Virus record (IMG/VR): IMGVR_UViG_3300025168_009799
Span: 1 to 64,000 of that record
DNA from: a virus
Length of the DNA: 64,000 nucleotides
Direction: 5' to 3' (one strand)
The notes beneath the pieces were generated by a model. The model ran no database searches and was not told the origin of the DNA. It was given only the letters and a program-made list of their open reading frames with translations. Positions 1-12,586 of the stretch are shown piece by piece. A program made the translations under genes and the position numbers. Numbering within the stretch: the stretch's first letter is position 1; the number at the start of each line of letters is the position of its first letter.

Positions 1-2
1 TA

Positions 3-68
3 TCCGGCTTTAGCCCAAGAGTTCAAAGCTTTTCTTTGTTCTTGCGTTTTGTTATTATCTGTCTTCAT
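3..68 (-). CDS. N-terminus of a probable superfamily 2 helicase (runs off the window edge)
   Basis: ATG at 68 gives MKTDNNKTQEQRKALNSWAKAG, which resembles the Q-motif (Q..Al..W) preceding Walker A in SF2 helicases; lies downstream of the DNA polymerase. Only 22 codons are visible. Confidence 0.4.
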   Translation of the reverse strand, partial: MKTDNNKTQEQRKALNSWAKAG

Positions 69-82
69 TATTTTTTGTGTTG

Positions 83-454
83 TTACCATGATCCTCTATC
101 TAAATTTCTATTCATTACTTTAATGACCTTACCTTTACATACTCCTAATTCTTCAGCCATTTTCTGCATAGTTTGATTAGGATTCCTATAAAAATAGTCG
201 ATAATCAAAGAGTCTTCTTTATTTACTACAGTATAAATGTGCTTATCTTTCACTTTCTGTGACAAATAGGCAAGTCTTAAGTCTCTTCGATGTGTTTCTC
301 CAATACCTACAGTAGGATCAACTTCGTCTATAGTTTTGGTACTTCGTTTAAAATAATTTTCAAATTCTATTGTATTCCTCTTAAATAATTCTTTCAAGAA
401 ATTACGCTGTTTTACTTCAGCTACGAAGTTTCTAATTAAATCTTTATCTGTCAT
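83..454 (-). CDS. Hypothetical protein with C-terminal helix-turn-helix
   Basis: 123 aa; NPNQTMQKMAEELGVCKGKVIKVM fits an HTH pattern. Confidence 0.6.
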   Translation of the reverse strand: MTDKDLIRNFVAEVKQRNFLKELFKRNTIEFENYFKRSTKTIDEVDPTVGIGETHRRDLRLAYLSQKVKDKHIYTVVNKEDSLIIDYFYRNPNQTMQKMAEELGVCKGKVIKVMNRNLDRGSW

Positions 455-488
455 AATATTCGTTTTAATTGGTTAATAAAAATGTAAG

Positions 489-2351
489 CTACTTTTCCCA
501 ACAGTTGCTTACGGTTACTTCAGCTTTTAACAAGCCGTTTGTTACAATCTCTAATGCAGCATCTTCCATTAGTTCTTTCATTTTAATTGTCCATGAACCT
601 ACATACTCATCTTTACATATAGTATCTATTTGATCATGAACAGTCATTACTAGTTGAACAGGAATATTAAACTCTTTAATGTAATCACGCATTAATATTA
701 AAGCGCGCTTAGTCATATCTGCACTAGCTCCTTGTATTGGTGTATTCTTTGAAGCTCGTTCAATTGTCCCAAGTTCTAACATTGAGGATTTGTTATGCCA
801 AATCTTAGGATACCAGTTACTAAACCATCTCTTTCTGTTATAAGGAGGAAATGTTTTAATGTACCCAAATTTCTTTCCATAATTACCTAGTTTATCTAAA
901 AACCCTTTAATTGCAGGAAACGCTTTGAAGTACTTATCTATTAATGTTGTAGCTTCATCCTTAGATATATCTAAAGTTGCAGCTAATTTATTTGGACCCA
1001 TACCATAAGCAAGGCCAAAATTAATAGTTTTAACATTTGTTCTCAATTTTTTATGTGAAGGGCAACTGCACTTAGTTTTACGACTAAAGTATGTGCAATT
1101 TTCCTCCCCACTATCCATCCACAGTCCACCATATACTAATTCAGCACAAGTTGAATGTAGGTCTTGACCTTCTTCTAAGGCATTCAGCCAAACTGGATCC
1201 TTAGATCCGAAAGCAATTACATTTAATTCTTGTGAACTATAGTCAGCACTAACAAAACTCCATCCCTTTGGAGCTGTAAAACAATTACGAAAAGCATTAT
1301 CTGCTGGTATTTGTTGCATATTAGGCTTGCTACTACTTACTCGTCCTGTATCTAGTATTTGGTGAAAACTGGTATGGATCTTATTATCTACTCTAACATT
1401 CTCTAAAAATTTCTCTCCATAAGAAGTCAATAGTTTCATTGCTTCTTTATAGTTTATGTAAGTATCAATTAATTCATTGTTCTTTCTAAAAGTGTATAAT
1501 TCTTTGCCATTTACATTAGTTAATGTAGGAATAGTAGTTTGAAAGACTTCTAATACTTGCTTTGGACTAGTCCATTTAATATTTACAGTTCTTAAATCTT
1601 CAAGTGGTGTAAACATATCTGCTTGTATATATTTATAAAGAAATTCTTTATATTTATCATCTTCTATCACTATATTATCTAAACATATTTCTAATGCTTT
1701 AGCTTTTAATCTACTCTTGTCTTCTAATTTTTTCCATTGCTCTTTGTCAATGTGTATTCCGTTATATTCTATGTCTGCAAAGGCTAAAACAGCCTCATTT
1801 TCTAATTTTACTGTATTTTCTAATTTATGATGTTTAATGCTATTCTCTTGCGATTTAAACAACTTTGATAGTAATTGAATGTCTTTAGCTCCATATGCTA
1901 TCTGATCGTCTGTAAATGCTCCTGTGTGATTTATGAATGATTTCTGTGTTTCTTTACTCAGTTCTATTTGTAATCTTCTCTTTACTGTCTCTTTTAAGGA
2001 TACTGATAATTTCTTACCACATGTTAGAATTCTTTCTGCTAACATTGTATCATATACATTCTCACAATTTATATTAAATTTCTTTATAAAATTAACATCA
2101 AACTTTGCGTTATGTAGTATTTTTACTATTTGTTTACTTTCTAATATATCTTTCAATGGTGTTACATCAATTTCTCTCACATCTATGATGTATTGTGTGT
2201 CTTGATCTCCAATTTGTAACATTATTATGTTATTATTGGTAAAACTTAGGCCTGTAGTTTCTGTATCTACTCCTATTTGCTGTTTATCCTTACAATACTC
2301 CACTACATTAAGTAGTGAAGTATCGGAAGCTTTATTTACTATTTTTATCAT
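489..2351 (-). CDS. polA: Family A DNA polymerase with 3'-5' exonuclease domain
   Basis: ExoI DTETTGL, ExoII HNAKFD, ExoIII YGAKD; TGRVSSSKPNMQQIP; motif A ADYSSQEL, motif B RTNVKTINFGLAYG, motif C TVHDQI. Confidence 0.97.
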   Translation of the reverse strand: MIKIVNKASDTSLLNVVEYCKDKQQIGVDTETTGLSFTNNNIIMLQIGDQDTQYIIDVREIDVTPLKDILESKQIVKILHNAKFDVNFIKKFNINCENVYDTMLAERILTCGKKLSVSLKETVKRRLQIELSKETQKSFINHTGAFTDDQIAYGAKDIQLLSKLFKSQENSIKHHKLENTVKLENEAVLAFADIEYNGIHIDKEQWKKLEDKSRLKAKALEICLDNIVIEDDKYKEFLYKYIQADMFTPLEDLRTVNIKWTSPKQVLEVFQTTIPTLTNVNGKELYTFRKNNELIDTYINYKEAMKLLTSYGEKFLENVRVDNKIHTSFHQILDTGRVSSSKPNMQQIPADNAFRNCFTAPKGWSFVSADYSSQELNVIAFGSKDPVWLNALEEGQDLHSTCAELVYGGLWMDSGEENCTYFSRKTKCSCPSHKKLRTNVKTINFGLAYGMGPNKLAATLDISKDEATTLIDKYFKAFPAIKGFLDKLGNYGKKFGYIKTFPPYNRKRWFSNWYPKIWHNKSSMLELGTIERASKNTPIQGASADMTKRALILMRDYIKEFNIPVQLVMTVHDQIDTICKDEYVGSWTIKMKELMEDAALEIVTNGLLKAEVTVSNCWEK

Positions 2352-2552
2352 TTATTTGATATCTAAAGTGTGTACTCTAATGCCACTATCAGTTTTCTTA
2401 GGTGTTCCTTTAGGTGAAGGCCATCCAAATTGCATTTCAAATCCTAAATCCTCTGTTATAATCTTAGGCATTACTATTTTATAATGTGTTCTAGTCTTTC
2501 TACCCTCTTTATCTAGGCCATAGACTGGTTTTAAACAAGTTTGTTTTGTCAT
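2352..2552 (-). CDS. Hypothetical protein
   Basis: 66-aa ORF whose stop abuts the polA ATG. Confidence 0.6.
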   Translation of the reverse strand: MTKQTCLKPVYGLDKEGRKTRTHYKIVMPKIITEDLGFEMQFGWPSPKGTPKKTDSGIRVHTLDIK

Positions 2553-2573
2553 AAATACTGTTTTTATAAAATG

Positions 2574-2598
2574 AAAAAGGGAAGATTTCTCTTCCCTT
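2574..2598 (-). terminator. Rho-independent terminator
   Basis: Minus strand AAGGGAAGA-GAAA-TCTTCCCTT (9-bp stem, GAAA loop) running into TTTTT, downstream of the 209-aa gene. Confidence 0.75.
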
Positions 2599-2758
2599 CA
2601 TCATTTCTGCGACATACCGTAGGTATTGTCATCGTCAATTATTTAGTTGAATTCCAAGGTATTAAGATAAAATTATGCAAGTTTCTTTTATACTTAAATA
2701 TAACTTGGAGCAAATATAAGTAATTTGTAGATACTATACAAGTATATACTAATTATTT

Positions 2759-3388
2759 TTATATGCCCATAGTTTGATCAGTTATCTCTCCTGTTTCAAC
2801 ATTAACTTTTTCACTCTCTTTACCTGGAGCAATTGCATCCTGTTCTAATGTTTCGTGTTGAACTATTTCTCCTTCATCAGCTAATACTACTGTTGGATTA
2901 CTAAAGATGTAAAAGCTTTTATGTGTAATAAATGCTCCTTCTGCACCTTTTCTTTTAGCTGCTTTTTCTACATTCTCTGCTTGCCATTCATTTGGATCAA
3001 CTGTTTCTTTGATCTGTACTCTGAACATTTTATCTAATTCAGGATGATAAGGATTAAGAATGTTTAAAGGTAAAATATCAACTTCTCTATTTCCTACTTG
3101 ACCTGTTGTCCAGTTAGGATTTTTATCTGATACGTCAACTCCAAATAATTCCATCATTCTTTTTGGTGATGCAGTAGTCCAAGCTCTTCTTGCTTTTAAT
3201 TGAAATCTAGGATCATCTGAATTTAATGTTGCTACAGCTGATAATGCTGATCTTGAAACACTGTTTTCAAATGACTCAGCAAATTCTAAGTACATTTTAT
3301 CTCCTTTACTAGTTGGTCTACAGTTTACTAGTAAACATTGCCCTGTTTTTAGAGTGTCTAAGGCCCCACTGTTGATTTTGTTTTGCAT
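2759..3388 (-). CDS. Hypothetical protein (possibly ssDNA-binding)
   Basis: 209 aa with an acidic, flexible-looking C-terminus, in the replication block; function is inference only. Confidence 0.7.
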   Translation of the reverse strand: MQNKINSGALDTLKTGQCLLVNCRPTSKGDKMYLEFAESFENSVSRSALSAVATLNSDDPRFQLKARRAWTTASPKRMMELFGVDVSDKNPNWTTGQVGNREVDILPLNILNPYHPELDKMFRVQIKETVDPNEWQAENVEKAAKRKGAEGAFITHKSFYIFSNPTVVLADEGEIVQHETLEQDAIAPGKESEKVNVETGEITDQTMGI

Positions 3389-3427
3389 GTTTTTAAATTT
3401 AAATGTTATAATTGGTGTTAGTTTTTA

Positions 3428-3595
3428 TTAGGATACTAACATCCTGTCTATTTTCTTCTTAAGCATAGTTATTACAAATTGTCCTACTTTAGGATGAACT
3501 GAAGTTGATGTTCGTATACATTTAATAAGTCTAGCTAATTGATCTACTGATTTATTTTTTGTAGATACTCGTCTTCCTTTAATAGTTATGACCAT
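3428..3595 (-). CDS. Hypothetical protein
   Basis: ORF track start is 3649; ATG at 3595 (MVITIKG) gives a short overlap with the upstream stop and is more plausible. Confidence 0.5.
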   Translation of the reverse strand: MVITIKGRRVSTKNKSVDQLARLIKCIRTSTSVHPKVGQFVITMLKKKIDRMLVS

Positions 3596-3804
3596 TGATA
3601 CATCATTAGTAGTGTTATACATAATACTAATGAAATGGATAAACTCCATATTCTAGTTGTGTCTAATTTCTTCTCTAAATACTCAACTTTCATATTTGAT
3701 ACTTTTAACTCTTGTATGTATCTAAGTTCTTGAGTTTTCTTCATAGTTAATTGTCTAGCTAACGATGGTCCTTTCTTTTTAGGTTTAACGGTTTTTTCTG
3801 TCAT
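3586..3804 (-). CDS. Small protein with C-terminal transmembrane helix
   Basis: 72 aa; coiled-coil-like region then IWSLSISLVLCITLLMMY. Confidence 0.65.
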   Translation of the reverse strand: MTEKTVKPKKKGPSLARQLTMKKTQELRYIQELKVSNMKVEYLEKKLDTTRIWSLSISLVLCITLLMMYQWS

Positions 3805-3814
3805 TTTTTGATCT

Positions 3815-4000
3815 TTAATGGTTAATAGTTTGGTTAATGTTAGATAATACTTCTGTTGTTTTCTTTGTTAATTCTGCATTCTTTCCTATAAGTTCTCTGT
3901 TAAGTCTAACTTCAGTTGCTAAAGTCTTAGCTATATTAGATAACTCTAATATTTGCTTGTTTAAGCTGTCGATTAGATCCATGATCTCTTTATTTGTCAT
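3815..4000 (-). CDS. Small coiled-coil protein
   Basis: 61 aa with heptad pattern and an A-rich leader. Confidence 0.65.
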   Translation of the reverse strand: MTNKEIMDLIDSLNKQILELSNIAKTLATEVRLNRELIGKNAELTKKTTEVLSNINQTINH

Positions 4001-4105
4001 TTTTAAATGGTTTAAGTAAAAGTTAGACTTAATAAATAGTTTATCTGTTAGCGTTAAGCTTAGTAAGAATGGATTGTCTTGCCCCTATTTATTAAAGTCT
4101 ACACT

Positions 4106-4495
4106 TTATGGTTTCTTATGTATATTAATTATTTTTGTACCTCTTCTATTTAACTCAAGGTAATCACCTATTTGTATTAGTGAATACTCACCAAATGTAG
4201 AATAGTATGTTGAGCCATCTTTTAATGCTATTAAATAATAATCATTTTTATCTTTAGCGATGACTTGTCTTGTATCTGTTGTTGTCCATCTAACACCATC
4301 TTCATCAATTACAGGTATTGTTCTAACAGTATTACAAGAAGAGCAAGTTATAAGTAACATAATAAATATGATTACTGGAGTTAATAAGATACACCAACTT
4401 AATGTTGTCTCAAATATGTTATATCTTTTATCTCTTTTTATTCTATCATAATTAGCTTTCATTACTTTAGGATCTGATTTGTAAGGTTCTTTCAT
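4106..4495 (-). CDS. Membrane-anchored or lipoprotein-like hypothetical protein
   Basis: 129 aa; hydrophobic WCILLTPVIIFIMLLIT followed by lipobox-like CSSC. Confidence 0.65.
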   Translation of the reverse strand: MKEPYKSDPKVMKANYDRIKRDKRYNIFETTLSWCILLTPVIIFIMLLITCSSCNTVRTIPVIDEDGVRWTTTDTRQVIAKDKNDYYLIALKDGSTYYSTFGEYSLIQIGDYLELNRRGTKIINIHKKP

Positions 4496-4680
4496 TTCTT
4501 ACTTGTTAATTTCCAGTCAAAGCCAATTGATAAGCCTAACATAGTTATTGCTAGTCCATCTCTTAATTTGAATCCTATCATTAGTAAATCTGCTTGACTA
4601 GAAGCAAATTCAATTTTAAAACAGATATTAAATCTATTCATTAGTGTTATGGAACACCACTCCTTAGCATAATTCTTCAT
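4492..4680 (-). CDS. Hypothetical protein
   Basis: 62 aa; ATGA overlap with the next gene. Confidence 0.6.
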   Translation of the reverse strand: MKNYAKEWCSITLMNRFNICFKIEFASSQADLLMIGFKLRDGLAITMLGLSIGFDWKLTSKK

Positions 4681-4687
4681 ATTTATT

Positions 4688-4720
4688 TGTTTAGTTAATG
4701 TTTAGTTAATGTTTAGTTAA
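4688..4720. repeat. Three perfect copies of the 11-bp tandem repeat TGTTTAGTTAA
   Basis: Units at 4688, 4699 and 4710, directly upstream of the minus-strand ATG at 4680. Confidence 0.95.
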
Positions 4721-4846
4721 TAATAACAGGTAAGCAGCGTTTATTAGCAATATCGCGGGTTATCCCATACTGACTACTTGTTCGACACCAAATCTAGATA
4801 GTTATCACTAACCTTTGGGCTTATTGTTACACCTGTTATTAAGTTG

Positions 4847-5098
4847 TTATTGCAGAAGAAAGCTAATGACTCTTCTTAAATCTCTTTTTATATCTTCATT
4901 AGCCTCTACACCATTAGCATCTTTATAATCATTAATTATAGCATGACATGTATTTAATGTGTTGATTACAAATGGTGCTTTCATTCTTTCTTTTAAATCA
5001 GCAAGTTGTGACAATAGTATTGTATTGTGATTTAATGCTTTAGTTATCTCTAAGTTTTTGTTTAGAATCTTAGTATCTAATTCAATATTCTTTTCCAT
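4847..5098 (-). CDS. Hypothetical protein
   Basis: 83-aa ORF preceded by the 11-mer repeat leader. Confidence 0.65.
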   Translation of the reverse strand: MEKNIELDTKILNKNLEITKALNHNTILLSQLADLKERMKAPFVINTLNTCHAIINDYKDANGVEANEDIKRDLRRVISFLLQ

Positions 5099-5105
5099 GA
5101 TTTAA

Positions 5106-5133
5106 TGTTTAGTTAAGGTTTAGTTAATGTTTA
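5106..5133. repeat. Second array of the 11-mer (TGTTTAGTTAA, GGTTTAGTTAA, partial)
   Basis: Same unit as 4688-4720, upstream of the ATG at 5098. Confidence 0.85.
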
Positions 5134-5305
5134 AAGTGTTACTATGTGTTATACTATACAATACGACTGTAATGTAAGTTATGTGAATGTAGTGTGAAAG
5201 CTGCGAATACACAGTCCTTCGTGCACTCACTCGTAACGTAACCCTTAGTTAATACTCAATCCGTTTGACGATGACATAGGTGGATTATTCCTACGGATGT
5301 GGTGG

Positions 5306-5554
5306 TTACTCAACTTCGCCACCTACTAACCATTTGAACTCAACAGTCTTCTCAGGATTATCTTCATCGATAACCGTTGATGTTTCAAACTTAGGATTAG
5401 TAATGACAACTGTATCTCCAACATTTAAAGAGAACTCACTACCTTTGTGAACAAAGATAGGCTCTCCCTTAGTGATGAACTGTCCGTTACCGAACTCCAT
5501 ACTACGAGTGAGTAAGATACAAGTGTCATACAACTTAGTAATTATGTATTTCAT
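5306..5554 (-). CDS. Hypothetical protein (first gene of the minus-strand block)
   Basis: ATG at 5554 (MKYIITKLYD..., 82 aa) preferred over the track's alternative start at 5635. Confidence 0.6.
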   Translation of the reverse strand: MKYIITKLYDTCILLTRSMEFGNGQFITKGEPIFVHKGSEFSLNVGDTVVITNPKFETSTVIDEDNPEKTVEFKWLVGGEVE

Positions 5555-5665
5555 AGTTAAAAAGTTTGATATAGGGGATACTCCCAAATATCGATTTAAC
5601 ACTGGGGTCGTTGACAAGGAGGTCCGCACGCTCACAAATAAAGGTTAAAAAAATTTTTTTTATTT

Positions 5666-5698
5666 TTTGTTGTTTATTAAATATTTTTAGTATTTTTG
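5666..5698 (+). promoter_or_regulatory. Bacteroidota primary-sigma promoter (-33 TTTG, -7 TAnnTTTG)
   Basis: TTTG at 5666-5669, 21-nt spacer, TATTTTTG at 5691-5698. Confidence 0.7.
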
Positions 5699-5700
5699 CA

Positions 5701-5947
5701 CCGCAACAATATCATCCCTCGGTAACCAAAAAAGGGATTAGACATCGGATTGGTAGTTCTAAATAAGAATGAGATTTTCTCCGGTAGTTGCAAAAGAGTA
5801 ATGTATAAAATCTAATTAGGATACATGGCACATAGGTAGGTGCGGTGAATTAACACCAGTTTTAGTATCCTTTGGTCTCCGATGAGGAAAGCACTATTAG
5901 AAAGAAATCATAACTTGAAAGAATCAAAAACCTAGGGGGAAAGTTAT
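5701..5947 (+). ncRNA. Candidate structured non-coding RNA (about 245 nt)
   Basis: No ORF of 60 aa or more, raised GC, eight mutually compatible helices found by eye, bracketed by two promoters. Confidence 0.6.
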
Positions 5948-5982
5948 ATACTTTTTAGAAATTTTAAAAAAAAATTTATTTT

Positions 5983-6015
5983 TTAGTATTTATATAAAAA
6001 ACTTTTATATTTTTG
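5983..6015 (+). promoter_or_regulatory. Second TAnnTTTG promoter, upstream of groES
   Basis: TATTTTTG at 6008-6015, TTAG at the -33 position, upstream A-tract/T-tract similar to the 5641-5698 promoter. Confidence 0.6.
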
Positions 6016-6038
6016 TCAAGAAATTAAATAATTAAAAT

Positions 6039-6317
6039 ATGAAAGTGACTAAACCTAACTTTAAACCCTTAAGGGATTGGATCTTATTACCAGATCCAAG
6101 AAAAACAAAAACAGAAAGCGGGATAATATTATCTGAAGAAGCTGCTGATAAAATGACAACTAATATACTAGAGATTCTGGATGTAGGTCCGGATGTTAAA
6201 TCTGTTAAAGCTGGAGATACTGTAATGGTAGATCCTAGCGTAGCAGGTAAAATTATAGTAGTAGATGATGTATCATTTGTATTAGTAAGTGAATTCCATG
6301 TATTAGGAGTACTGTAA
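6039..6317 (+). CDS. groES: Co-chaperonin GroES (Cpn10)
   Basis: FKPLRDWILL...KTESGIIL mobile loop...DVGPDVKSVKAGDTVM...HVLGVL. Confidence 0.9.
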   Translation: MKVTKPNFKPLRDWILLPDPRKTKTESGIILSEEAADKMTTNILEILDVGPDVKSVKAGDTVMVDPSVAGKIIVVDDVSFVLVSEFHVLGVL

Positions 6318-6661
6318 TGAAAGCTGAAGATCGTAGAAGAATAACTATTAAGGCTGATACTACCTTAAAGTATATCCAAGTATGGAACGGGATATTCAAT
6401 TTAACTAATAAAGAATTAGAGGTATTAGCATTATTTATAGATATCCATAAGACAGTGGATATTAAGAGTATATGCCATAATAAAATAAAACAAGTAGTTG
6501 CAGCTAAATTAGATATTAGAGATGCTAACACATTGAATAACTATATTAAGAAATTAAAAGATAAAGGCGCTTTAAGAAAAAATAAGAATCTTTATGTCTT
6601 AACACCTATTCTTAATCCAAATATTAAAAGAGTTGAGGTCAATATCAATAGCAACAAATAA
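6317..6661 (+). CDS. Winged-helix DNA-binding protein
   Basis: LTNKELEVLA...VAAKLDI...TLNNYIKKLKDKGAL. Confidence 0.7.
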   Translation: MKAEDRRRITIKADTTLKYIQVWNGIFNLTNKELEVLALFIDIHKTVDIKSICHNKIKQVVAAKLDIRDANTLNNYIKKLKDKGALRKNKNLYVLTPILNPNIKRVEVNINSNK

Positions 6662-6806
6662 TATATTCATTGAGGAATGGTTATTACTAGAAGGAGAATA
6701 CGTAGTGATAGTTATAATAGGATATGATTATGAAGGAAACTGTATTAAATTAAAAATAGAACATGAGCCAATCAAAGAAAAAACCGTTAACCACTTTATT
6801 GAGTAA
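6633..6806 (+). CDS. Small hypothetical protein (57 aa, TTG start; not in ORF track)
   Basis: Open frame LRSISIATNNIFIEEWLLLEGEYVVIVIIGYDYEGNCIKLKIEHEP...; fills the gap between neighbouring genes. Confidence 0.4.
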   Translation: MRSISIATNNIFIEEWLLLEGEYVVIVIIGYDYEGNCIKLKIEHEPIKEKTVNHFIE

Positions 6807-7029
6807 TTTTATTAAAGAAGGAACTAAGTATGTTCAGCATGGTATGCCGCAAGTATCACCTGAAGAGTATACAAAAAGATTAAAAATTTGTTATGAATGT
6901 GAACATTTACGAGAAGTGAGTACTTCTTGTGGATTATGTGGCTGTGGTATGGAGATGAAAGCTAAATGGGGAACATCTACGTGTCCAGATAATCCACCTA
7001 AATGGGAGGCTACGCATGGTAAAGGATAG
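6763..7029 (+). CDS. Cys-rich zinc-binding protein (DUF6171-like)
   Basis: RLKICYECEH...CGLCGCGMEMKAKW...CP...KW. Confidence 0.75.
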   Translation: MSQSKKKPLTTLLSNFIKEGTKYVQHGMPQVSPEEYTKRLKICYECEHLREVSTSCGLCGCGMEMKAKWGTSTCPDNPPKWEATHGKG

Positions 7030-7246
7030 AGAAGAGATTATTTATTATCTATCTAATAAATATGAGGTACCAATATATTTAGTTAGAGAGATTGTTAATT
7101 ATCAATTTAAATTTGTGTCAAAGCAAATAAAAGAGGGAGATTATGATGCGATACGTTTACCATATTTTGGTAACTTTTCTGTAAATAAAAATAGAGTTAA
7201 ATATATAACAAAATTAAAAAATGAAAAAATTATTAAAGACCTTTAA
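7016..7246 (+). CDS. HU/IHF-like DNA-binding protein
   Basis: Helical N-terminus and IRLPYFGNFSV signature; typical position upstream of terL in crAss-like phages. Confidence 0.75.
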   Translation: MVKDREEIIYYLSNKYEVPIYLVREIVNYQFKFVSKQIKEGDYDAIRLPYFGNFSVNKNRVKYITKLKNEKIIKDL

Positions 7247-7361
7247 ATTTTTACATTATATAGGGTTTCACAATAAAGATTGTAGAAGAAGGGATTTTAC
7301 AACAAAAAATAAGTATATTTGTCTTCGAACAGGTAACTTACATAAAAAATTTACATTATGA
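7221..7361 (+). CDS. Small basic protein (46 aa; not in ORF track)
   Basis: MKKLLKTFKFLHYIGFHNKDCRRRDFTTKNKYICLRTGNLHKKFTL; ATGA overlap with the next gene; H..C..C..H pattern. Confidence 0.55.
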   Translation: MKKLLKTFKFLHYIGFHNKDCRRRDFTTKNKYICLRTGNLHKKFTL

Positions 7362-7564
7362 GTTTAAGATTAGTATTAAAAAAACAAGGAACTGTAAGAG
7401 GACGTAGATGGATTATTAAAAGAGATAATAATGATAATATTATAGAGGTTAAGTGTATCTTTAAACCTGAAGAATATGTAAAACAAAAACGAGCTAAACC
7501 TATGCTTGGTGATAGACAATTCATCATAGAGTTAGATAAAGAATATGAAAAAGAAAATAAATGA
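7358..7564 (+). CDS. Hypothetical protein
   Basis: 68 aa; translationally coupled at both ends. Confidence 0.65.
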   Translation: MSLRLVLKKQGTVRGRRWIIKRDNNDNIIEVKCIFKPEEYVKQKRAKPMLGDRQFIIELDKEYEKENK

Positions 7565-8085
7565 CTGAGTTATTAAGTATAGCAGATTATAAAGCGGTAC
7601 CTTCTCCATACGCTCTTTCTATAGAAGAGTTTAGTGTTATTGCAAGTAGAAAAGTAGGTATGAAAGAATTAGCGTATGTTTATTATATGTGTAATCATAA
7701 TTCTCCCTTTTATGTTTATGATCACGCAGAAAGACATACACAAGTTAAAGATGCTTTGTTTAAAGATGTAAAGTGGAGTCCAGACCCAAAACTTAAAGGA
7801 TGTATGGATCTGTATAATAGGTTAACGGAAACCTCAGCAGTTAAGTTACTAAAAGCTGCAAAAACATCAATAGCAAAATTAGAAAAATATTTAAGGGTTA
7901 TTGATTTAACCTCATTAGATGATAATGGTAAACCTATCTACACAGCAAAAGATCTTATTTATAATTTAGAAAAGATGGGAAAAGTTGTAGAAGGATTATC
8001 TAAACTAGAAGAACTAGTTAGAAGAGAAGAAAAAGTAGGCAATAAAAACCGAGGAGGAGTAGAAGTAAATAAATATAGTATGTAA
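7561..8085 (+). CDS. Conserved crAss-like protein, putative terminase small subunit
   Basis: 174 aa helical protein just upstream of terL; assignment is positional. Confidence 0.55.
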   Translation: MTELLSIADYKAVPSPYALSIEEFSVIASRKVGMKELAYVYYMCNHNSPFYVYDHAERHTQVKDALFKDVKWSPDPKLKGCMDLYNRLTETSAVKLLKAAKTSIAKLEKYLRVIDLTSLDDNGKPIYTAKDLIYNLEKMGKVVEGLSKLEELVRREEKVGNKNRGGVEVNKYSM

Positions 8086-8086
8086 T

Positions 8087-8347
8087 ATGGATTTTTTAGA
8101 AGATTTAGAACTTTATAACCAAGCTATGGAGAATGCATATTTAGTTATTACTAATAAACTTGATGTAGATGAGATATTAGTAGATCTAAATAATGATGAT
8201 CTAGAAGAGTTTTCATTACCTTTTAATCCGTTCTTACACGATGATATCTCTAATGAAGAGATTGATGAAGTGATAGAACACTTTACAGGATTAGAAGAGT
8301 ATGAAAAATGTGCAGAATTGGTAAAATGTAAAGTAGAGTATGTTTAG
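8087..8347 (+). CDS. Acidic protein with UvrB/UvrC-like motif
   Basis: C-terminal FTGLEEYEKCAELVK. Confidence 0.6.
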   Translation: MDFLEDLELYNQAMENAYLVITNKLDVDEILVDLNNDDLEEFSLPFNPFLHDDISNEEIDEVIEHFTGLEEYEKCAELVKCKVEYV

Positions 8348-10304
8348 GGACATCAATCGTATTAGGCCATCAGCTGTAAGATTCTTAGAGCATGGTTATT
8401 ACACTGAGGCCATTCCTGGAACAAAAGAGTATTTTGACTTTTGGGACGAAGAACGGAAGAGATGTTTATATGGCTATACTATAGATGAACTTCATGTTAC
8501 GGGATTTCATTATTTTTATTTAAACTATTGTCCTATTGATAGAGCTGTAGACGAAGAGCTTCCAGACGGTTCTGTACAATCTAATCGTGAGCGTACATTT
8601 CCTGCTTTTTATGATGGGGATTGGGAATACTTCCAAGAAGTAGATAAAGCTAGGTCAGAGAATAGACATATGATTGTATTGAAAGCTAGACGTAAAGGGT
8701 ATTCTTATAAAGCAGGCTCTATGATCGCTAGAAATTATTTCTTTGTAAAGAACTCTAAAAACTTTGTATTTGCTGCACAAAAAGAATATTTAATTGGGGA
8801 TGGTTTACTTTCTAAAGCCTGGGATTTTTTATCTTTTATAGATGATAATACAGCATGGGCACAACCTAGATTAAGAGATAGAGAAATGAGTAAGATGTCT
8901 GGATATAAAAAGAAAATAAATGGTATTGAAATAGAGATGGGTATGAAGTCTCAAATAATGGGAGTTTCATTAAAAGATGCACCCGACAAGGTAAGGGGAA
9001 AAGCGGGAGAACTAGTTTTCTTTGAGGAAGCAGGTTCTTTCCCTGGCCTCCTGAAAGCGTGGGAGGTGACTATGCCTACCATGCGTCAGGGTAGCAAAAC
9101 ACTGGGACTGATGGTAGCGTTCGGAACGGGCGGTACGGAAGGAGCAGATTTTGAGGCCATGGAGGAGATATTTTATAATCCTGCAGCTTATGATTGTATG
9201 GCTTATGATAATATATGGGATGAAGGAGCATTAGGTACTCAGTGTGGATATTTTATTCCTATACAAAAAAACTTAGATGGATTTATAGATGAACAAGGTA
9301 ATTCTCAAGAAAAAATTGCTATAGAGTATGAGAAAGAAATGAGGGAAAAGAAAAAGGGTGCAGCCGATGCCAAATCACTAGACCAATACATTGCAGAGCA
9401 CCCTTATTCCCCTCAAGAGGCTACATTACAAGTGACGTCTAATTTATTTGATGTAGCATCTTTACAAGAACAATATAATCTAATAAAAGTTAAAGGATTA
9501 AATATTGTAGGTACTCCTGGACGCATGTATCAAGATACAGAGGGTAAACCAAATTTCAAACCTGATTATAGTAAAAAACCGGTTGATAGATACCCACATA
9601 GAAAAGAAAATGATAATAGTGGATGTGTTATTATTTACCAATCACCTTATAAGAATGTTGAAGAAGTTACACCTCATAATTTATATATAATTTGTCATGA
9701 CCCTTACGGACAAAATCAATCTGCAGATTCTACATCATTAGGCGCAGCTTATGTAATAAAAAGACCTAATAATTTATCACAACCAGATGATATGATTGTA
9801 GCATCTTATGTAGGTAGACCTGAAACTTCTGACGAGTTTAATCGTAATCTGTATTTATTAGCTGATTATTATAATGCTAAAATAGGATTTGAGAATGATC
9901 GAGGTGAAGTTATTGCGTATGGAAAAAGGCACAGAAAACTTCATAGATTACAACAAGAATTCGAGATGTTAGACAAAAAAGAATTGCAGTCTAGGAACGT
10001 AAAAAGGCAATATGGCATGCATATGACGGAAGCTAGGAAGCTCCAAGGTGAGATATATATAAGGGATTGGCTTAATTCAGTACGTACTATAGACGAGAAT
10101 GGAAAAAAATTACTAAATTTGCATAAAATCTATGACTCTGCTTTAATACAAGAGTTGATTAAATTCAATCATAAAGGTAACTTTGATAGAGTTATGGCCT
10201 TTATGATTGGTATGTATCATACTCGAGAATTATATAACGCAGAAGTTCAAGATATATACAGCGATCGATCAACGGATGATTGGTTTGATAATAATTATTA
10301 TTAA
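8340..10304 (+). CDS. terL: Terminase large subunit
   Basis: Walker A KARRKGYS, Walker B VFFEEAG, FGTGG coupling motif, nuclease HDPY...FEN...GNFDRVMA. Confidence 0.95.
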   Translation: MFRDINRIRPSAVRFLEHGYYTEAIPGTKEYFDFWDEERKRCLYGYTIDELHVTGFHYFYLNYCPIDRAVDEELPDGSVQSNRERTFPAFYDGDWEYFQEVDKARSENRHMIVLKARRKGYSYKAGSMIARNYFFVKNSKNFVFAAQKEYLIGDGLLSKAWDFLSFIDDNTAWAQPRLRDREMSKMSGYKKKINGIEIEMGMKSQIMGVSLKDAPDKVRGKAGELVFFEEAGSFPGLLKAWEVTMPTMRQGSKTLGLMVAFGTGGTEGADFEAMEEIFYNPAAYDCMAYDNIWDEGALGTQCGYFIPIQKNLDGFIDEQGNSQEKIAIEYEKEMREKKKGAADAKSLDQYIAEHPYSPQEATLQVTSNLFDVASLQEQYNLIKVKGLNIVGTPGRMYQDTEGKPNFKPDYSKKPVDRYPHRKENDNSGCVIIYQSPYKNVEEVTPHNLYIICHDPYGQNQSADSTSLGAAYVIKRPNNLSQPDDMIVASYVGRPETSDEFNRNLYLLADYYNAKIGFENDRGEVIAYGKRHRKLHRLQQEFEMLDKKELQSRNVKRQYGMHMTEARKLQGEIYIRDWLNSVRTIDENGKKLLNLHKIYDSALIQELIKFNHKGNFDRVMAFMIGMYHTRELYNAEVQDIYSDRSTDDWFDNNYY

Positions 10305-10306
10305 AT

Positions 10307-12586
10307 ATGGCACAAAACGAAACTACTAGTAGAATACCACAACAAAGATTACCAGCCTCCAAGAAGACAAAGAAATGGAGAGAAGCTTGTGTAGAAGGGT
10401 ATATAGCATTATCAGATATTCATAGTGTAAATGGAGACTCAGATGTAGAAAGATTTTATAGATATTATAACGGCGATATAGATGACTCTGATTATAAACA
10501 TGTATTAAAACCTTACGGAAAAACAAGAAAAAATTTCCCTTCTGAAATACGAAATTTTCCTATTATTAAACCTATTATAGATTTATTATTAGGGGAAAAA
10601 TCTAAGAGACCTTTAAATTATACTGTGACTGTACAAAATGCAGATGCTGTATCTATGAAGGAAGAAGCTAAAATGGAAGCTTTATATACAAACTTACAAC
10701 AACGTTTTATACAAGATGTAGGAGATGAGGCTATGTCAGAAGGTATACCTCCAGAAGAATTAGAACTGCCTGAGAATTTAATGAAAAAATTTGAAGATAG
10801 TTATGTAGATAATAGGGCTATAATGGGAGAGAAGGCAATGAACTATCTATTTCAAAAATGTGAAATGTATGATAATTTTCAAAAAGCTTGGTATCACTTC
10901 TTAGTAGCAGGAGAGTGTTATTCTCATAGAGGAGTAAGAAATGGGGAACCATTTTATGAAGTATTAAATCCTATGGATGTTGATTATGATAAAGACCCAG
11001 ATGTAGAATTTGTAGAAGATGGAGATTGGGCATTAGTTAAAAAAGCAATGCATGTCTCTTCAGTTATAGATCACTTTGGTACTCATTTAACAGATGATCA
11101 AATATTAAATCTAGAAGATCCTACAGGAACAAATGTTGATATTGCATTTTCATCTATATCTGATGGTAAAATAAATAAAAACGCATTGATTGAAGTAGTA
11201 ACTGTTTATTGGAAATCAAGAAAAAGAATTGGATTTATGCAATATGTAGATCCAGCTACAAACTCACTTGAAGAAATGACTGTAGAAGATGGATATCAAG
11301 TTACTCCTGAAATGAAAGAACAAGGAGCTAGAATTAAATGGGAATGGATTAATGAAGTATGGGAAGGTACAAGAATAGATGACAAACATTATGTAAATAT
11401 ACATCCCGTAGTAAATCAAAGAACATCAATTGATCATCCTTCAATATGTAAACTTCCAATTAATGGTAGAGTTTATTCAACAAATCCTTCTAGTAATATG
11501 TCTATTGTAGGTATAGGTGTGCCATATCAACTTACATATAATATTTATAAGTATAGATTAGAACTTGCAATAGCTAGAAGTAAAGATATTATTGCTCAGT
11601 TTGATATTAATATGATCCCTAAAAAATGGGATATGGATAAATTTATGTATTATGTCGAAGGTACAGGTATTGCTTGGGTAGATTATAATAAAGAAGGAAT
11701 ACAATTAAATCCACAACATCAATCTGTTATGGACATGTCTATTAAAACTATTCAACAATATATTACTTTATTAGAAAGTATAGTAATAGAATGGGAAAGA
11801 GTATCAGGAGTAAATAGACAACGTCAAGGACAAGTAGGCGCGTATGAAGGAAAGGCTACTTCACAACAAGCTATTATGCAATCGTCACATATAACTGAAG
11901 ATTTATTTAGACGATTTGCAAGATTTGAACAAAGAGATATGCAAGCTTTATTAGATTATTCAAAAGAGGCTTGGTTAACTGGAAAGAAAACTACATATGT
12001 TATGCCCGATGGTACAACAGAATTTTTAAATGTAGATAGTATGAGTCATATGGAATCTGAATATGGTATTTTTGTATCAGACTCTGGAAGAGATCAAGAT
12101 AAATTAGAGCAAATTAGACAACTTGGATTAAGTATGATCCAAAATGGTATGCCAATGTCAACAGTTGTAGATGTAATGGAATCTGAATCATTTATAGGAA
12201 TTAAATCTAAAATGAAATCAGCTGAAAAAGCTCAACAAGAATTACAAGAAGCTCAACAACAACAAGCAATGCAAGAGAAACAAATGGCTATTCAAAGTGC
12301 TGAACAAATTGCTCAAGCTCAAATTGAGAATGAGAATTTAAATAATGAGAAGGATCGCCAAACTAAAATTGATGTTGCTTTAATTAATGCAGGATCTAGA
12401 GCAGATGGAGATGTAGTGAAGCATGCTACTCAAGAAGGGAAAGATAGAAAAGATCAGGAATTAAGAGAAAGAGAGATAGAATTAAAAGAAAGAGGACAGA
12501 GAGAATCAGAACGAGCAAATATCTCTAAAGAAAATATAACTAAAGAAAAGAATAAGAACGATGCCAAAAAACAAAACGACAAATAA
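10307..12586 (+). CDS. Portal protein (crAss-type)
   Basis: 759 aa after terL; RNFPIIKPIIDLLLGE, WINEVWEG, KLPING, SGVNRQRQG, C-terminal coiled coil. Confidence 0.92.
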   Translation: MAQNETTSRIPQQRLPASKKTKKWREACVEGYIALSDIHSVNGDSDVERFYRYYNGDIDDSDYKHVLKPYGKTRKNFPSEIRNFPIIKPIIDLLLGEKSKRPLNYTVTVQNADAVSMKEEAKMEALYTNLQQRFIQDVGDEAMSEGIPPEELELPENLMKKFEDSYVDNRAIMGEKAMNYLFQKCEMYDNFQKAWYHFLVAGECYSHRGVRNGEPFYEVLNPMDVDYDKDPDVEFVEDGDWALVKKAMHVSSVIDHFGTHLTDDQILNLEDPTGTNVDIAFSSISDGKINKNALIEVVTVYWKSRKRIGFMQYVDPATNSLEEMTVEDGYQVTPEMKEQGARIKWEWINEVWEGTRIDDKHYVNIHPVVNQRTSIDHPSICKLPINGRVYSTNPSSNMSIVGIGVPYQLTYNIYKYRLELAIARSKDIIAQFDINMIPKKWDMDKFMYYVEGTGIAWVDYNKEGIQLNPQHQSVMDMSIKTIQQYITLLESIVIEWERVSGVNRQRQGQVGAYEGKATSQQAIMQSSHITEDLFRRFARFEQRDMQALLDYSKEAWLTGKKTTYVMPDGTTEFLNVDSMSHMESEYGIFVSDSGRDQDKLEQIRQLGLSMIQNGMPMSTVVDVMESESFIGIKSKMKSAEKAQQELQEAQQQQAMQEKQMAIQSAEQIAQAQIENENLNNEKDRQTKIDVALINAGSRADGDVVKHATQEGKDRKDQELREREIELKERGQRESERANISKENITKEKNKNDAKKQNDK

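Follow-up and report, generated by a model that had tools for sequence, protein, structure and literature searches.

Few known phages are as abundant as the Crassvirales, but the control of their very long late operons remains poorly understood in their Bacteroidota hosts, which have unusual promoters and make little use of Shine-Dalgarno sequences. The present locus raises the question of what stands at the head of such an operon. In the window, i.e., the whole stretch of 64,000 nucleotides that was analysed, an earlier note had proposed positions 5701-5947 as a candidate stand-alone RNA of no known class, with several stems and possible pseudoknots, and had listed a ribozyme, a packaging RNA similar to that of phi29, and a decoy or antitermination RNA as its possible roles. 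A covarying RNA with which the virion arm begins in over 100 marine phage genomes gives a concrete handle on late-operon control. The features of the locus are the following.

489-2351: DNA polymerase of the replication arm, putatively of family A as read from its sequence
5666-5698, + strand: Bacteroidota-type promoter of the RNA, with a -33 element TTTG at 5666-5669 and a -7 box TATTTTTG at 5691-5698
5703-5956, + strand: structured RNA, with a predicted 5' end and an approximate 3' end
6008-6015, + strand: second -7 box TATTTTTG, before the groES-like gene, as read from the sequence
6039-6317, + strand: groES-like gene, the first of the rightward arm, a putative label read from the sequence
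8340-10304, + strand: TerL, 654 aa, whose relatives are annotated as terminase large subunit
10307-12586, + strand: putative portal, as read from the sequence

The RNA and its relatives

The segment 5701-5947 contains no credible ORF and forms, as had been noticed, a GC-enriched island, with a GC content of 0.34-0.39 across 5700-5950 versus 0.11-0.18 at 5900-6050 and 0.27-0.30 just upstream. Both the promoter and the second -7 box that had been proposed to flank it can indeed be read in the sequence. A search with a 32-nt motif showed that at least 119 IMG/VR contigs carry this RNA, in 103 distinct sequences, and a pairing model of 42 pairs was evaluated on a covariation alignment of 76 homologues. 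In this alignment, 94.6% of the cells are paired, versus 36-54% for slid controls, and two-sided compensatory changes are found in 26 of the 42 pairs (377 cells), a level that none of 500 shuffles matches. RNAalifold independently finds nine of these elements (P1, P2, P2a, P3, P4, P4a, P4b, P5 and the 3' hairpin, see below), with compensatory changes in 23 of its 46 pairs. When the same homologues are read on the - strand, the proportion of paired cells is 86.1%, and G.U pairs account for 319 of 3189 cells on the + strand. The strand is thus fixed as + by the G.U pairs and the promoter, and the compensatory changes, together with about 10% of G.U, indicate that selection acts on an RNA and not on duplex DNA.

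The promoter-led, multi-stem RNA proposed on the + strand is therefore borne out by covariation in more than 100 distinct homologues, and we estimate at about 95% the probability that the structured RNA at approximately 5703-5956 (+) and its fold are real. The covariance model built for it spans 5696-5962 in the window (270.6 bits) and finds a single copy in the 89.7-kb genome. The earlier note had also suggested comparing its folding energy with that of shuffled sequences. Taken alone, the RNA of the window folds at chance level, with z-scores of -0.52 (+) and -1.10 (-), which by the measure of that note counts against an RNA. The single-sequence z-score is uninformative here, and the covariation overrides it and reverses this reading.

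No known class could be assigned to the RNA, in agreement with what had been anticipated. With the 4227 models of Rfam 15, the whole window gives no match at the gathering score, and only chance-level matches are obtained at E <=10 over 5400-6200, none of them above 15.3 bits inside the RNA. Likewise, nothing overlaps the RNA at E <=0.5 in two island loci and two other phage loci, and the island loci (see below) give no match at the gathering threshold. The RNA is thus a member of an uncatalogued structured-RNA family, about 250 nt in length. In the literature on crAss-like phages and Crassvirales, on phage structured RNAs and on Bacteroidota satellites, we found no description of it. More than ten thousand candidate structured RNAs have been reported from viral sequence collections including IMG/VR (PMC10690425); the available part of that report mentions neither crAss, GroES nor Flavobacteria, and its supplementary tables may list the motif anonymously. 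Two preprints of 2026 on the mining of non-coding elements do not mention crAss or Flavobacteria either. A reading of the element as a MITE was set aside, as it is single-copy and syntenic in phages and as PMC11602168, in its available part, is not relevant to it.

In 40 of 80 TerL-related loci the identity of the 483-nt intergenic region amounts to 73-87%, and the adjoining groES-like protein is just 41-55% identical in most of these loci. Judged from such sequence comparisons, the RNA is more conserved than the proteins beside it. The RNA region has no match by blastn and megablast in 50,697 deposited phage records, and the TerL protein matches 159 deposited phage records, all below 60% identity (38.0-42.6% among the 25 matches listed of the 159). 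No cultured close relative is therefore found among them. When 185,579 species genomes were scanned for the pattern, 13 matches came up, none of which scores with the covariance model, and they were treated as due to chance. In the clade whose TerL is 58-68% identical (L068-L075 and L079), the covariance model finds nothing; in seven examined loci of this clade, the stretch upstream of the groES-like gene looks protein-coding on the same strand, as judged by eye in the alignment.

With regard to transcripts, seven marine metatranscriptome runs contain about 5% of the sampled words. In four of these seven runs, which consist of contigs, coverage is seen at 5302-5577, and one run contains a lone 164-nt contig over 5703-5795, in which unlike sequence precedes this part and adapter follows it.

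Helices and invariant positions

The RNA is composed of two domains, a 5' domain in which P0 closes P1 and P2/P2a, and a 3' domain in which P3 closes P4/P4a/P4b and P5. They are followed by a conserved tail, which comprises GAAAUC, UUGAAA, AAGGGGGA and a small hairpin. All the elements lie on the + strand.

5703-5707 / 5787-5791, + strand: P0, long-range helix GCAAC/GUUGC, which closes the 5' domain
5714-5738, + strand: P1, hairpin AUCCCU/AGGGAU, with G-GUAA-C in its loop, a GNRA-type tetraloop
5744-5748 / 5781-5785, + strand: P2, AUCGG/CCGGU, which encloses P2a and an invariant UUUUCU
5756-5770, + strand: P2a, hairpin GUUCU/AGAAU, with an invariant loop AAAUA
5811-5816 / 5896-5901, + strand: P3, long-range helix UCUAAU/AUUAGA, which closes P4, P4a, P4b and P5
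5818-5871, + strand: P4, AGGAUAC/GUAUCCU, which encloses P4a and P4b
5828-5831 / 5840-5843, + strand: P4a, GCAC/GUGC
5844-5847 / 5854-5857, + strand: P4b, GGUG/CACC, with an invariant loop AAUUAA
5878-5888, + strand: P5, short variable hairpin, UCC/GGA in the window, in a register set by eye
5935-5956, + strand: invariant G-run AAGGGGGA and small 3' hairpin, AAAGU 5940-5944 / ACUUU 5950-5954 in the window

The complementary segments that the earlier note had listed all exist, and five of its eight helices are kept, with many two-sided changes. These are P1 (92.6% of cells paired in the 76 homologues, with two-sided change in 3 of 5 core pairs), P2a (95.8% paired, with two-sided change in 4 of 5 pairs), P4 (100% paired), P4a (98.4%) and P4b (100%). 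The rest of the proposed architecture does not hold. CATCGGA/TCCGATG, which was thought to close a multiloop, is paired in 29% and 60% of cells in its two parts, and the 3' stem ATAACTT/AAGTTAT in 49%. AGATTTT/AAAATCT is paired in 80%, with changes that are nearly all one-sided or wobble, and it overlaps P3. As for the two suggested pseudoknots, two columns of TAGGT/ACCTA are paired in just 3 and 13 of 76 sequences, and GGTAGTTGC/GCACTATT, paired in 47 to 76 of 76 sequences depending on the column, conflicts with the far better supported P0, P2 and P3.

The long-range helices that covary are instead P0, P2 and P3. The five pairs of P0 are all canonical in the 58 type-A sequences, with swaps from GC to CG, CG to UA and AU to GC. 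Among the 18 non-type-A sequences, 12 contain perfectly complementary 5-mers at this place (GAGGC/GCCUC, GAAGC/GCUUC or GAGAC/GUCUC), the remaining six being clipped at their 5' end by extraction. P2 is paired in 100% of cells, covaries to GUUGG/CCAAU(C) and to GUGGGA/UCCCAC, and gains the pair 5749-5780 in RNAalifold. In type B, a P2 first read as GUUGUG/CACAGC proved wrong, the homologous helix being GUGGGA/UCCCAC, seen further upstream. P3 is paired in 97.4% of cells, with two-sided change in 5 of 6 pairs, and is among the helices recovered independently by RNAalifold.

Variation between relatives is found at several places. In other types of the family, P1 is extended by a hairpin capped with GAAA or GAGA, and P2a is a variable site, with an insertion of about 100 nt in types B and L157. 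P5 is CCG/CGG, CCU/AGG or UCU/AGA in relatives; RNAalifold pairs its columns 219-221 with 234-236, and the pair 219-236 is CG in 49, UA in 26 and UG in 1 of the sequences. The junctions and loops, by comparison, contain the invariant nucleotides UUUUCUCC, GUAUAA, AAUUAA and GAGCACUG. A further helix, P2b, cannot form together with the outer pairs of P3, and each of the two shows some covariation. GNRA caps and invariant junctions are features that ribozymes, riboswitches and RNAs bound by proteins show just as typically.

In the tail, the small 3' hairpin is GGAUA/UAUCC in most relatives, and columns 5938-5940 pair with 5949-5951 in 69-73 of the 76 homologues, where all changes are one-sided. 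With G.U pairs included, the invariant G-run AAGGGGGA could pair either with the small hairpin, on its 3' strand, or with UUUUCUCC, which is likewise invariant; these candidate pairings fall in invariant columns. In some relatives, a second copy of UUUUCUCC is present in the tail and can pair locally with GGGGGAGA. A pairing of CUCC with the G-run, proposed by RNAalifold on 32 sequences, lies in invariant columns and clashes with P2; it was left as a candidate outside the model. Two other readings, a GAAAUC/GGGGGAU helix and an 11-nt tetraloop-receptor formed by CCUAAG/UAUGG, were inconsistent across the family, by eye or by counts.

Promoter, downstream genes and islands

TAnnTTTG, which we take to be the Bacteroidota -7 box with transcription starting about 5 nt after it, is found within 70 nt upstream of the RNA in 84 of 96 family members. 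It is at a fixed place in 59 of the 96, with its G at model position 3 (57 members) or one base off (2). In the window, 5 nt separate the end of the -7 box from P0, and this promoter geometry predicts a start at about G5703, the first base of P0, where host RNA polymerase would begin.

The RNA sits where the two gene arms of the phage diverge and points into the groES-like/TerL/portal arm. A groES-like homologue and TerL are found downstream, on the strand of the RNA, in 144 of 147 loci. Marine crAss-like phages keep the RNA at the start of their virion-gene arm. The gene that follows immediately is variable. A second TAnnTTTG is present between the RNA and the first ORF in 61 of 102 distinct loci, the window included, so that the virion arm need not depend on the polymerases that transcribe the RNA. 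In 41 of these 102 phage loci, the G-run is separated from the start of an ORF by 5-65 nt, and no exact TAnnTTTG lies in between. These ORFs are diverse (62-64-aa Cys-rich, 71-73-aa basic, or of 95, 117, 151 and 260-290 aa) and would most simply depend on the promoter of the RNA. The claim of a stand-alone RNA of no known class is upheld with regard to class, but in these 41 loci the RNA is physically a 5' leader.

In the window, a T-run follows the 3' hairpin at 5952-5956, and a scan for consensus terminators calls none. A T-run of at least 4 follows the 3' hairpin in 38 of 101 distinct loci and is absent from the other 63, so that, with no terminator called, read-through is likely. T-runs are more common in loci with a second promoter (29/61 versus 9/40; Fisher p 0.0125, uncorrected for relatedness), which would fit a separate, terminated RNA gene in those genomes.

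A shorter homologue of the RNA is present in integrase-bearing islands of one marine Flavobacteriaceae genus, in 6 of 33 genomes. It scores 42.7-48.3 bits in one variant and 32.9-41.2 bits in a second one, and lacks the P4 domain, with 18 nt in place of 66. In one variant, the island RNA heads co-oriented small genes encoding a 64-aa protein and HTH_17, and in the other a 73-aa protein and an AAA_25 fragment. No exact TAnnTTTG is found within 70 nt upstream of any of the 7 island copies. As the island proteins have no match in the phage by tblastn, the RNA is the sole part common to the phage and the islands. The RNA thus goes with the start of a mobile-element operon and not with a particular protein.

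Possible roles of the RNA

Among the roles that had been suggested, our leading guess is an antitermination-like one. The reading that we prefer is a cis-acting leader which conditions downstream transcription, and we hold it tentatively, at somewhat less than even odds. The RNA would fold while it is transcribed and act in cis on its own transcription unit. The mechanism that we prefer is an effect on the transcript or on the polymerase during elongation, in the manner of the HK022 put RNA, be it processive antitermination, anti-pausing or protection of the transcript. Weak terminators and AT-rich spacers would then not prevent expression of the downstream cargo, which is the virion-gene arm together with inserted accessory genes in the case of phages, and the small regulator genes in that of islands. 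We favour such a leader because the RNA precedes the groES-like/TerL arm in the same orientation (144/147 loci), because ORFs abut it in 41 of 102 loci with read-through likely, and because the island homologue again heads co-oriented small genes. The points against it are the second promoter of 61 of 102 loci, the enrichment of T-runs in those loci, the far more elaborate build of the RNA compared with put, the fact that its GNRA caps and invariant junctions would suit other kinds of RNA equally, and the lack of an exact TAnnTTTG near the 7 island copies. If an antitermination or expression-enabling leader is indeed involved, it would be a new RNA class for this job and a portable part for Bacteroidota genetics.

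The put RNA of HK022 is a close comparison. From a position directly behind its promoter it acts in cis with a reach of at least 10 kb, and it is about 70 nt long with two stem-loops (PMC9378689). putL and putR resemble the present RNA in several ways: they are phage RNAs that host RNA polymerase transcribes right after leaving the promoter of a long operon, they need no dedicated neighbouring protein gene, and it is structure and not coding that they conserve. put contacts the elongating RNA polymerase at its beta' zinc-binding domain and in this way suppresses, in cis, both pausing and termination, whereas an action of the phage RNA on the polymerase is a candidate only. The two RNAs also differ in that no sequence or structure resemblance is recognised between them, the phage RNA being 3-4 times longer (about 250 nt, 42-46 supported pairs and at least nine helices in two multi-helix domains), belonging to a Bacteroidota host and not to E. 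coli, and often having a second promoter behind it. In lambda, the arrangement PR'-qut-6S RNA-tR' similarly places a short leader behind a constitutive late promoter. It is Q-dependent and has no covariation-supported fold. Termination or read-through at the end of the leader could gate late genes in both cases, although no Q-like factor was identified for the phage RNA.

A stronger form of the cis-acting leader, which we consider doubtful, is that in this large nascent RNA the mobile elements of Bacteroidota would have a module that opens operons with RNA only, self-sufficiently, the first of its kind, and that makes host polymerase termination-resistant. Lytic marine crAss-like phages would keep it at the start of their ~65-kb virion arm, and small integrative islands of the same Flavobacteriaceae hosts, possibly phage satellites, would have captured it. 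If this were true, the islands would plug into the same control as the crAss-like phages.

The main rival of the cis-acting leader, to which we give a lower but still appreciable chance, is a stand-alone, stable and trans-acting RNA, which would be made in abundance from a promoter of its own and would have no tie to the divergence point beyond its location there. It could serve as scaffold in a ribonucleoprotein, act on a host factor or a defence as decoy or sponge, or bind polymerase or ribosome. If it acts in trans, it would be a ribonucleoprotein RNA or decoy new to phages. The consensus promoter of the RNA, with a predicted start at the first base of the terminal helix, would suit such a gene, as would the second promoter for the next gene in 61 of 102 loci, where T-runs are enriched. 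The very high sequence conservation, the GNRA-capped helices and invariant junctions, and the presence of the RNA in islands that share no protein with the phage also agree with it. On the other hand, there is no strong terminator (T-run in 38/101 loci, stem of 3-5 pairs), ORFs abut the RNA in 41 of 102 loci without the exact promoter motif, and its orientation is always into the downstream arm. GOLLD, ROOL and HEARO are large structured ncRNAs found by comparative genomics, often phage-carried and with no assigned function. They are similarly carried by mobile elements and have an ornate, covarying multi-junction fold with invariant loops and junctions, but the phage RNA is smaller, has no Rfam match, and occupies a fixed syntenic place behind a promoter at an operon head.

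A precedent for this rival could be found in phi14:2, a crAss-like phage of the marine flavobacterium Cellulophaga. According to the available part of 10.1101/2020.03.07.982082, it produces two intergenic lncRNAs of unassigned function at its g004-g006 junctions, which exceed most mRNAs in abundance and persist through infection. The phi14:2 study also reports that the sigma70 holoenzyme of E. coli can use promoters of this kind. These lie, however, at another genome position, and a conserved fold is not reported for them in that part of the source. The phi14:2 genome also contains no homologue of our RNA, the covariance model giving no match in the whole record NC_021806 at E <=1 and, with filters off over bases 1-9000, a best score of 11.7 bits, which is noise.

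A riboswitch-like or factor-sensing attenuator seems improbable. In it, the conserved core would recognise a metabolite, or else a protein of the phage or of the host, and would gate read-through by opposing the 3' hairpin and T-run to an alternative pairing of the G-run. The 5' leader position, the invariant junction nucleotides and the mutually exclusive P2b and outer P3 are in line with it. So is the potential of the G-run to pair with UUUUCUCC or with the 3' strand of the small hairpin, and that of the second UUUUCUCC copy of some tails to pair locally with GGGGGAGA. Nevertheless, the T-run is absent from 63 of 101 loci, two C residues of UUUUCUCC are already engaged in the well-supported P2, the candidate G-run pairings lie in invariant columns, and no known riboswitch class matches in Rfam. 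The first downstream ORFs, moreover, are so diverse that they are ill suited to a metabolite sensor.

Slightly less probable again is an origin-associated transcript, i.e., a primer or R-loop former for the family-A DNA polymerase of the phage, which the islands would copy for replication. ColE1 RNA II is such a primer and R-loop-forming origin transcript. The RNA is located at the minimum of the cumulative GC skew of the 89.7-kb genome, which is also the strand-divergence point, next to the replication arm, and its invariant G-run is followed by AT-rich DNA. In the prototypic crAssphage, origins are likewise predicted at the strand switch (PMC10983915). Gene orientation nevertheless confounds the skew minimum, the RNA is transcribed away from the replication genes, and the examined island flanks hold, as sole replication candidate, the fragmentary AAA_25.

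That the RNA is a ribozyme which, by self-cleavage or other catalysis, processes the start of the long transcript is quite improbable: its multi-junction fold, its GNRA loops and the invariance of unpaired nucleotides agree with this, but no known ribozyme family matches in Rfam and there is no sign of a conserved cleavage-site context. Last, a packaging RNA similar to phi29 pRNA, or a DNA-level pac/cos site imitated by satellites, has very little chance of being correct. The RNA lies upstream of the packaging module, has a size similar to that of pRNA, which is also a phage-encoded structured RNA, and is common to small islands, which could be phage satellites; yet Rfam gives no pRNA match, a canonical large terminase (TerL-type motor) is present, and the examined island flanks include no capsid or packaging genes. 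The island copies, finally, point to a likely host genus for this uncultured phage clade.

Distribution of the RNA family in phages and genomic islands

The + strand of the window carries, at ~5703-5956, a member of a new, widely conserved family of structured RNAs belonging to mobile elements of marine Flavobacteriaceae, mostly crAss-like phages. No family of Rfam 15 matches the members tested, in agreement with the earlier note, which could assign the element to no known class, and a search of the window sequence for tRNA and tmRNA gave none. No description of the RNA was found in the available part of the literature, and the catalogue of PMC10690425 may list the motif anonymously in its supplements. 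The source record (89,749 bp, CheckV-complete, classed as linear), whose first 64 kb form the window, has the following features around the RNA:

489-2351, - strand, putative family-A polymerase, read from the sequence
5556-6038, divergent intergenic region of 483 nt containing the RNA, flanked by a - strand gene (ATG placed at 5554) and by the groES-like gene, which starts with the ATG at 6039
6039-6317, + strand, groES-like gene, 92 aa (putative; label taken from the earlier note)
8340-10304, + strand, large terminase (TerL) ORF, 654 aa
10307-12586, + strand, putative portal gene, our own reading of the ORF

Between ~6 and 72 kb the long ORFs are on the + strand, elsewhere in the genome on the - strand; cumulative GC skew is lowest at 4-5 kb and highest near 72 kb. 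The closest deposited phages are Crassvirales, with a TerL identity of 38.0-42.6% for the best 25 of 159 matching records and below 60% in all 159, which places the phage in an uncultured marine crAss-like clade.

Homologues were collected in two ways. Among 80 IMG/VR loci related by TerL, the intergenic region is found by blastn in 40, at 70-87% nucleotide identity; the groES-like protein beside it is only 41-55% identical in most of the same loci. A 32-nt degenerate motif, taken from the most conserved part of the RNA, matched at least 119 viral contigs, and both sets combined give 143 full-length copies (103 distinct sequences). A groES-like gene lies downstream on the same strand in 144 of 147 motif-bearing loci; two of the other three have too little sequence and the last, L157, is devoid of the gene. 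In L157 the RNA scores 155.9 bits with R1, the covariance model of the family, though the best terminase match of this locus is at 29% identity. R1 finds one copy in the source phage genome, none in phi14:2 and none in the fetched loci of a sister clade with 58-68% TerL identity (L068-L075, L079). In the seven loci of this clade that were viewed, a conserved stretch, coding-looking by eye, stands immediately before the groES-like gene and in its orientation. Thirteen pattern matches in bacterial genomes are regarded as chance matches, as none scored with R1.

The - strand gene adjoining the RNA (82 aa from ATG 5554, within 5150-5555) was detected in just three of the 80 TerL-related loci. The stretch in which it lies has a GC of 0.39-0.45, against roughly 0.3 for the genome as judged from profiled stretches, and the gene is covered by contigs of four marine metatranscriptome runs at ~90-97% identity. 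Between its start and the RNA promoter lies a GC-rich segment, CACTGGGGTCGTTGACAAGGAGGTCCGCACGCTCAC (5600-5636), kept only in the closest relatives (L002-L004).

When R1 was run against 151 Flavobacteriaceae genomes, two matched: G138, which bears a full-length copy (42.7 bits), and a second whose 24.2-bit match covers the tail only and is not counted as a copy. A homologue is present in 6 of 33 genomes of the genus of G138, twice in two of them, and was not found in 150 other genomes of the same order. The contexts of these bacterial copies are mobile. In G138, two tRNA-Pro genes are followed by an integrase, a ParB_N-methylase, more genes, TRL, HTH_17, a 64-aa ORF and finally the RNA, which stands at the far end of the island and reads inward, with chromosomal genes beyond; in a second genome the order is integrase, RNA, 73-aa ORF and AAA_25 fragment. 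By tblastn, none of the island proteins is matched in the phage genome or the phage loci. What islands and phages have in common is the RNA alone.

The islands (L210, at G138:C1:494000-513999, and L218-L224) are small and integrase-bearing, and their hosts all belong to a single genus of marine Flavobacteriaceae with small genomes (1.5-2.2 Mb); the methylase of the island next to the two tRNA-Pro genes is a ParB_N-N6/N4 methylase, and its HTH_17 protein is excisionase/AlpA-like. They could be phage satellites. Their RNA copies fall into two variants, and those of variant I look, on reading, nearly identical in five genomes, which suggests that they may have been mobile recently.

Secondary structure

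All the promoter elements and complementary segments listed in the earlier note are present in the sequence, and the GC enrichment is real (0.34-0.39 over the element, against 0.11-0.18 directly downstream). The folding energy of 5701-5947 is no better than that of dinucleotide shuffles (+ strand, z = -0.52; - strand, z = -1.10), and the single sequence is by itself no evidence of structure. Pairs were counted on A1, an alignment of 76 homologues, for the structure of the earlier note and for our own, which comprises 42 pairs derived from compensatory changes seen in alignments. Its helices, all on the + strand and based on covariation, are:

P0, 5703-07/5787-91
P1, 5714-19/5733-38
P2, 5744-48/5781-85
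P2a, 5756-60/5766-70
P3, 5811-16/5896-5901
P4, 5818-24/5865-71
P4a, 5828-31/5840-43
P4b, 5844-47/5854-57

Of the cells of A1, 94.6% pair in this structure, and 26 of the 42 pairs show two-sided change (377 cells). None of 500 shuffles matches the observed cells paired, pairs changed, cells changed or covariation score; the number of further pair types does not set the structure apart, since 105 of 500 shuffles reach it. When the 3' partners are slid by 1-3 columns, pairing falls to 36-54%. RNAalifold, blind to our structure, recovers every listed helix but P0 and finds two more hairpins, the short and variable P5 and a small one at the 3' end. P0 shows poorly in A1, since its 5' strand falls in different columns in two family types: within type A alone, 58 of 58 sequences form canonical pairs at all five positions, and 12 of the 18 non-type-A sequences have perfectly complementary 5-mers (GAGGC/GCCUC, GAAGC/GCUUC, GAGAC/GUCUC), the remaining six having their 5' end truncated in extraction. 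G.U makes up ~10% of paired cells and reading the opposite strand lowers pairing to 86.1%, which, together with the promoter, establishes the + strand as the RNA strand.

The observation of the earlier note is partly confirmed and its interpretation partly supported. A structured RNA was correctly proposed there, and so were five local hairpins, paired in 92.6-100% of cells with abundant two-sided changes. Other stems did not survive: CATCGGA/TCCGATG pairs in 29% and 60% of cells for its two parts and ATAACTT/AAGTTAT in 49%, while both pseudoknots fail or clash with better-supported helices. AGATTTT/AAAATCT pairs in 80% of cells, with changes mostly one-sided or wobble.

A GNRA-type loop caps P1; in types B and C and in the islands its place is taken by an extra hairpin with a GAAA or GAGA cap. 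P2a varies within the family: type B and L157 carry an insertion of ~100 nt at this site. Both island variants keep P0, P1 with its GAAA-capped hairpin, P2, P2a with an AAAUA loop, GGUUUC(A/U)CCG(G/A)UAG, the UAUAA box, the P3 helix and the AAGGGG tail; both lack the entire P4 domain, and in variant II the insertion at P2a is larger. A hairpin P2b, around an invariant GUAUAA, is an alternative to the outer pairs of P3, and each of the two shows some covariation. Some sequences speak against a candidate contact of 3-4 bp that would join the P4a loop to CACUG.

The phage insertion at P2a (type-B loci L169, L163, L194, L131, L016, L064 and L188, and L157) is structured and holds a covarying stem, e.g., CCUUCU/AGAAGG vs CAUUCUAA/UUAGAAUG. 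Some type-B loci have a coding region, and no promoter, directly upstream of the RNA. In five loci (L165, L167, L170, L183, L087) the 3' tail reads GGGGGAGAG...AUUUUCUCC, a second copy of the invariant UUUUCUCC able to pair locally with the invariant G-run, which hints at a possible interaction between G-run and UUUUCUCC, or at a switch.

Transcription and possible function

TAnnTTTG occurs at most 70 nt upstream of the RNA in 84 of 96 family members, in 59 of them at the same position, give or take one base. Given the geometry of Bacteroidota promoters, i.e., the distance from motif to start, transcription is predicted to start at ~G5703, the first base of P0; in type C the same geometry is seen by eye, though P0 lies further upstream.

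Downstream of the RNA, 102 distinct loci were divided by the presence of an exact TAnnTTTG between the G-run and the first ORF. This second motif exists in 61 loci, including the window, and in most of those listed it lies at ~+58 to +71 and the first ORF is a groES-like gene of ~87-92 aa. The other 41 have no exact motif, and their ORFs, very diverse, start 5-65 nt past the G-run; several are read as inserted accessory genes that would use the promoter of the RNA. The 3' hairpin is weak and is followed by a T-run of at least four in 38 of 101 loci, more commonly with a second promoter (29/61 vs 9/40, p = 0.0125, uncorrected for relatedness), and a consensus scan called no terminator in the window. 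From these classes, T-runs and scan, some genomes seem to have the RNA as a unit of its own that is partly terminated, and others as a true 5' leader.

The family is shown to be real; how it acts is inferred. We favor, at a probability of roughly 0.4, a leader that would act in cis, conditioning the transcription or the transcript of whatever lies downstream, because two unrelated kinds of element keep its orientation and operon-head position without exception, genes lacking a promoter are inserted directly behind the RNA, and termination at its end is weak. The HK022 put RNA gives a precedent (PMC9378689). The size and intricacy of the phage RNA are, however, far beyond those of put, and this, like the second promoter of 61 of the 102 loci and the T-runs enriched where it exists, counts against a cis leader and would fit equally well an RNA acting in trans, which we consider only somewhat less probable. 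Riboswitch-like attenuation, an origin transcript and the ribozyme or packaging role suggested in the earlier note are less likely.

The gap between RNA and groES-like gene (5947-6038 in the window; also in L162, L176, L047, L048, L082, L091, L094, L150, L158 and others) is an insertion hot spot, and the genes inserted there lack an exact promoter motif. Most common among them is a gene for a protein of 62-64 aa that contains two CxCG pairs; others encode a 71-73-aa basic protein, a 95-aa protein, proteins of 260-290 aa and, as judged by eye, SET-domain-like (117 aa) and peptidase-like (151 aa) proteins. Where L048 has the ATG of the small gene, the window has, by eye, ATT, and this gene appears to have been lost from it.
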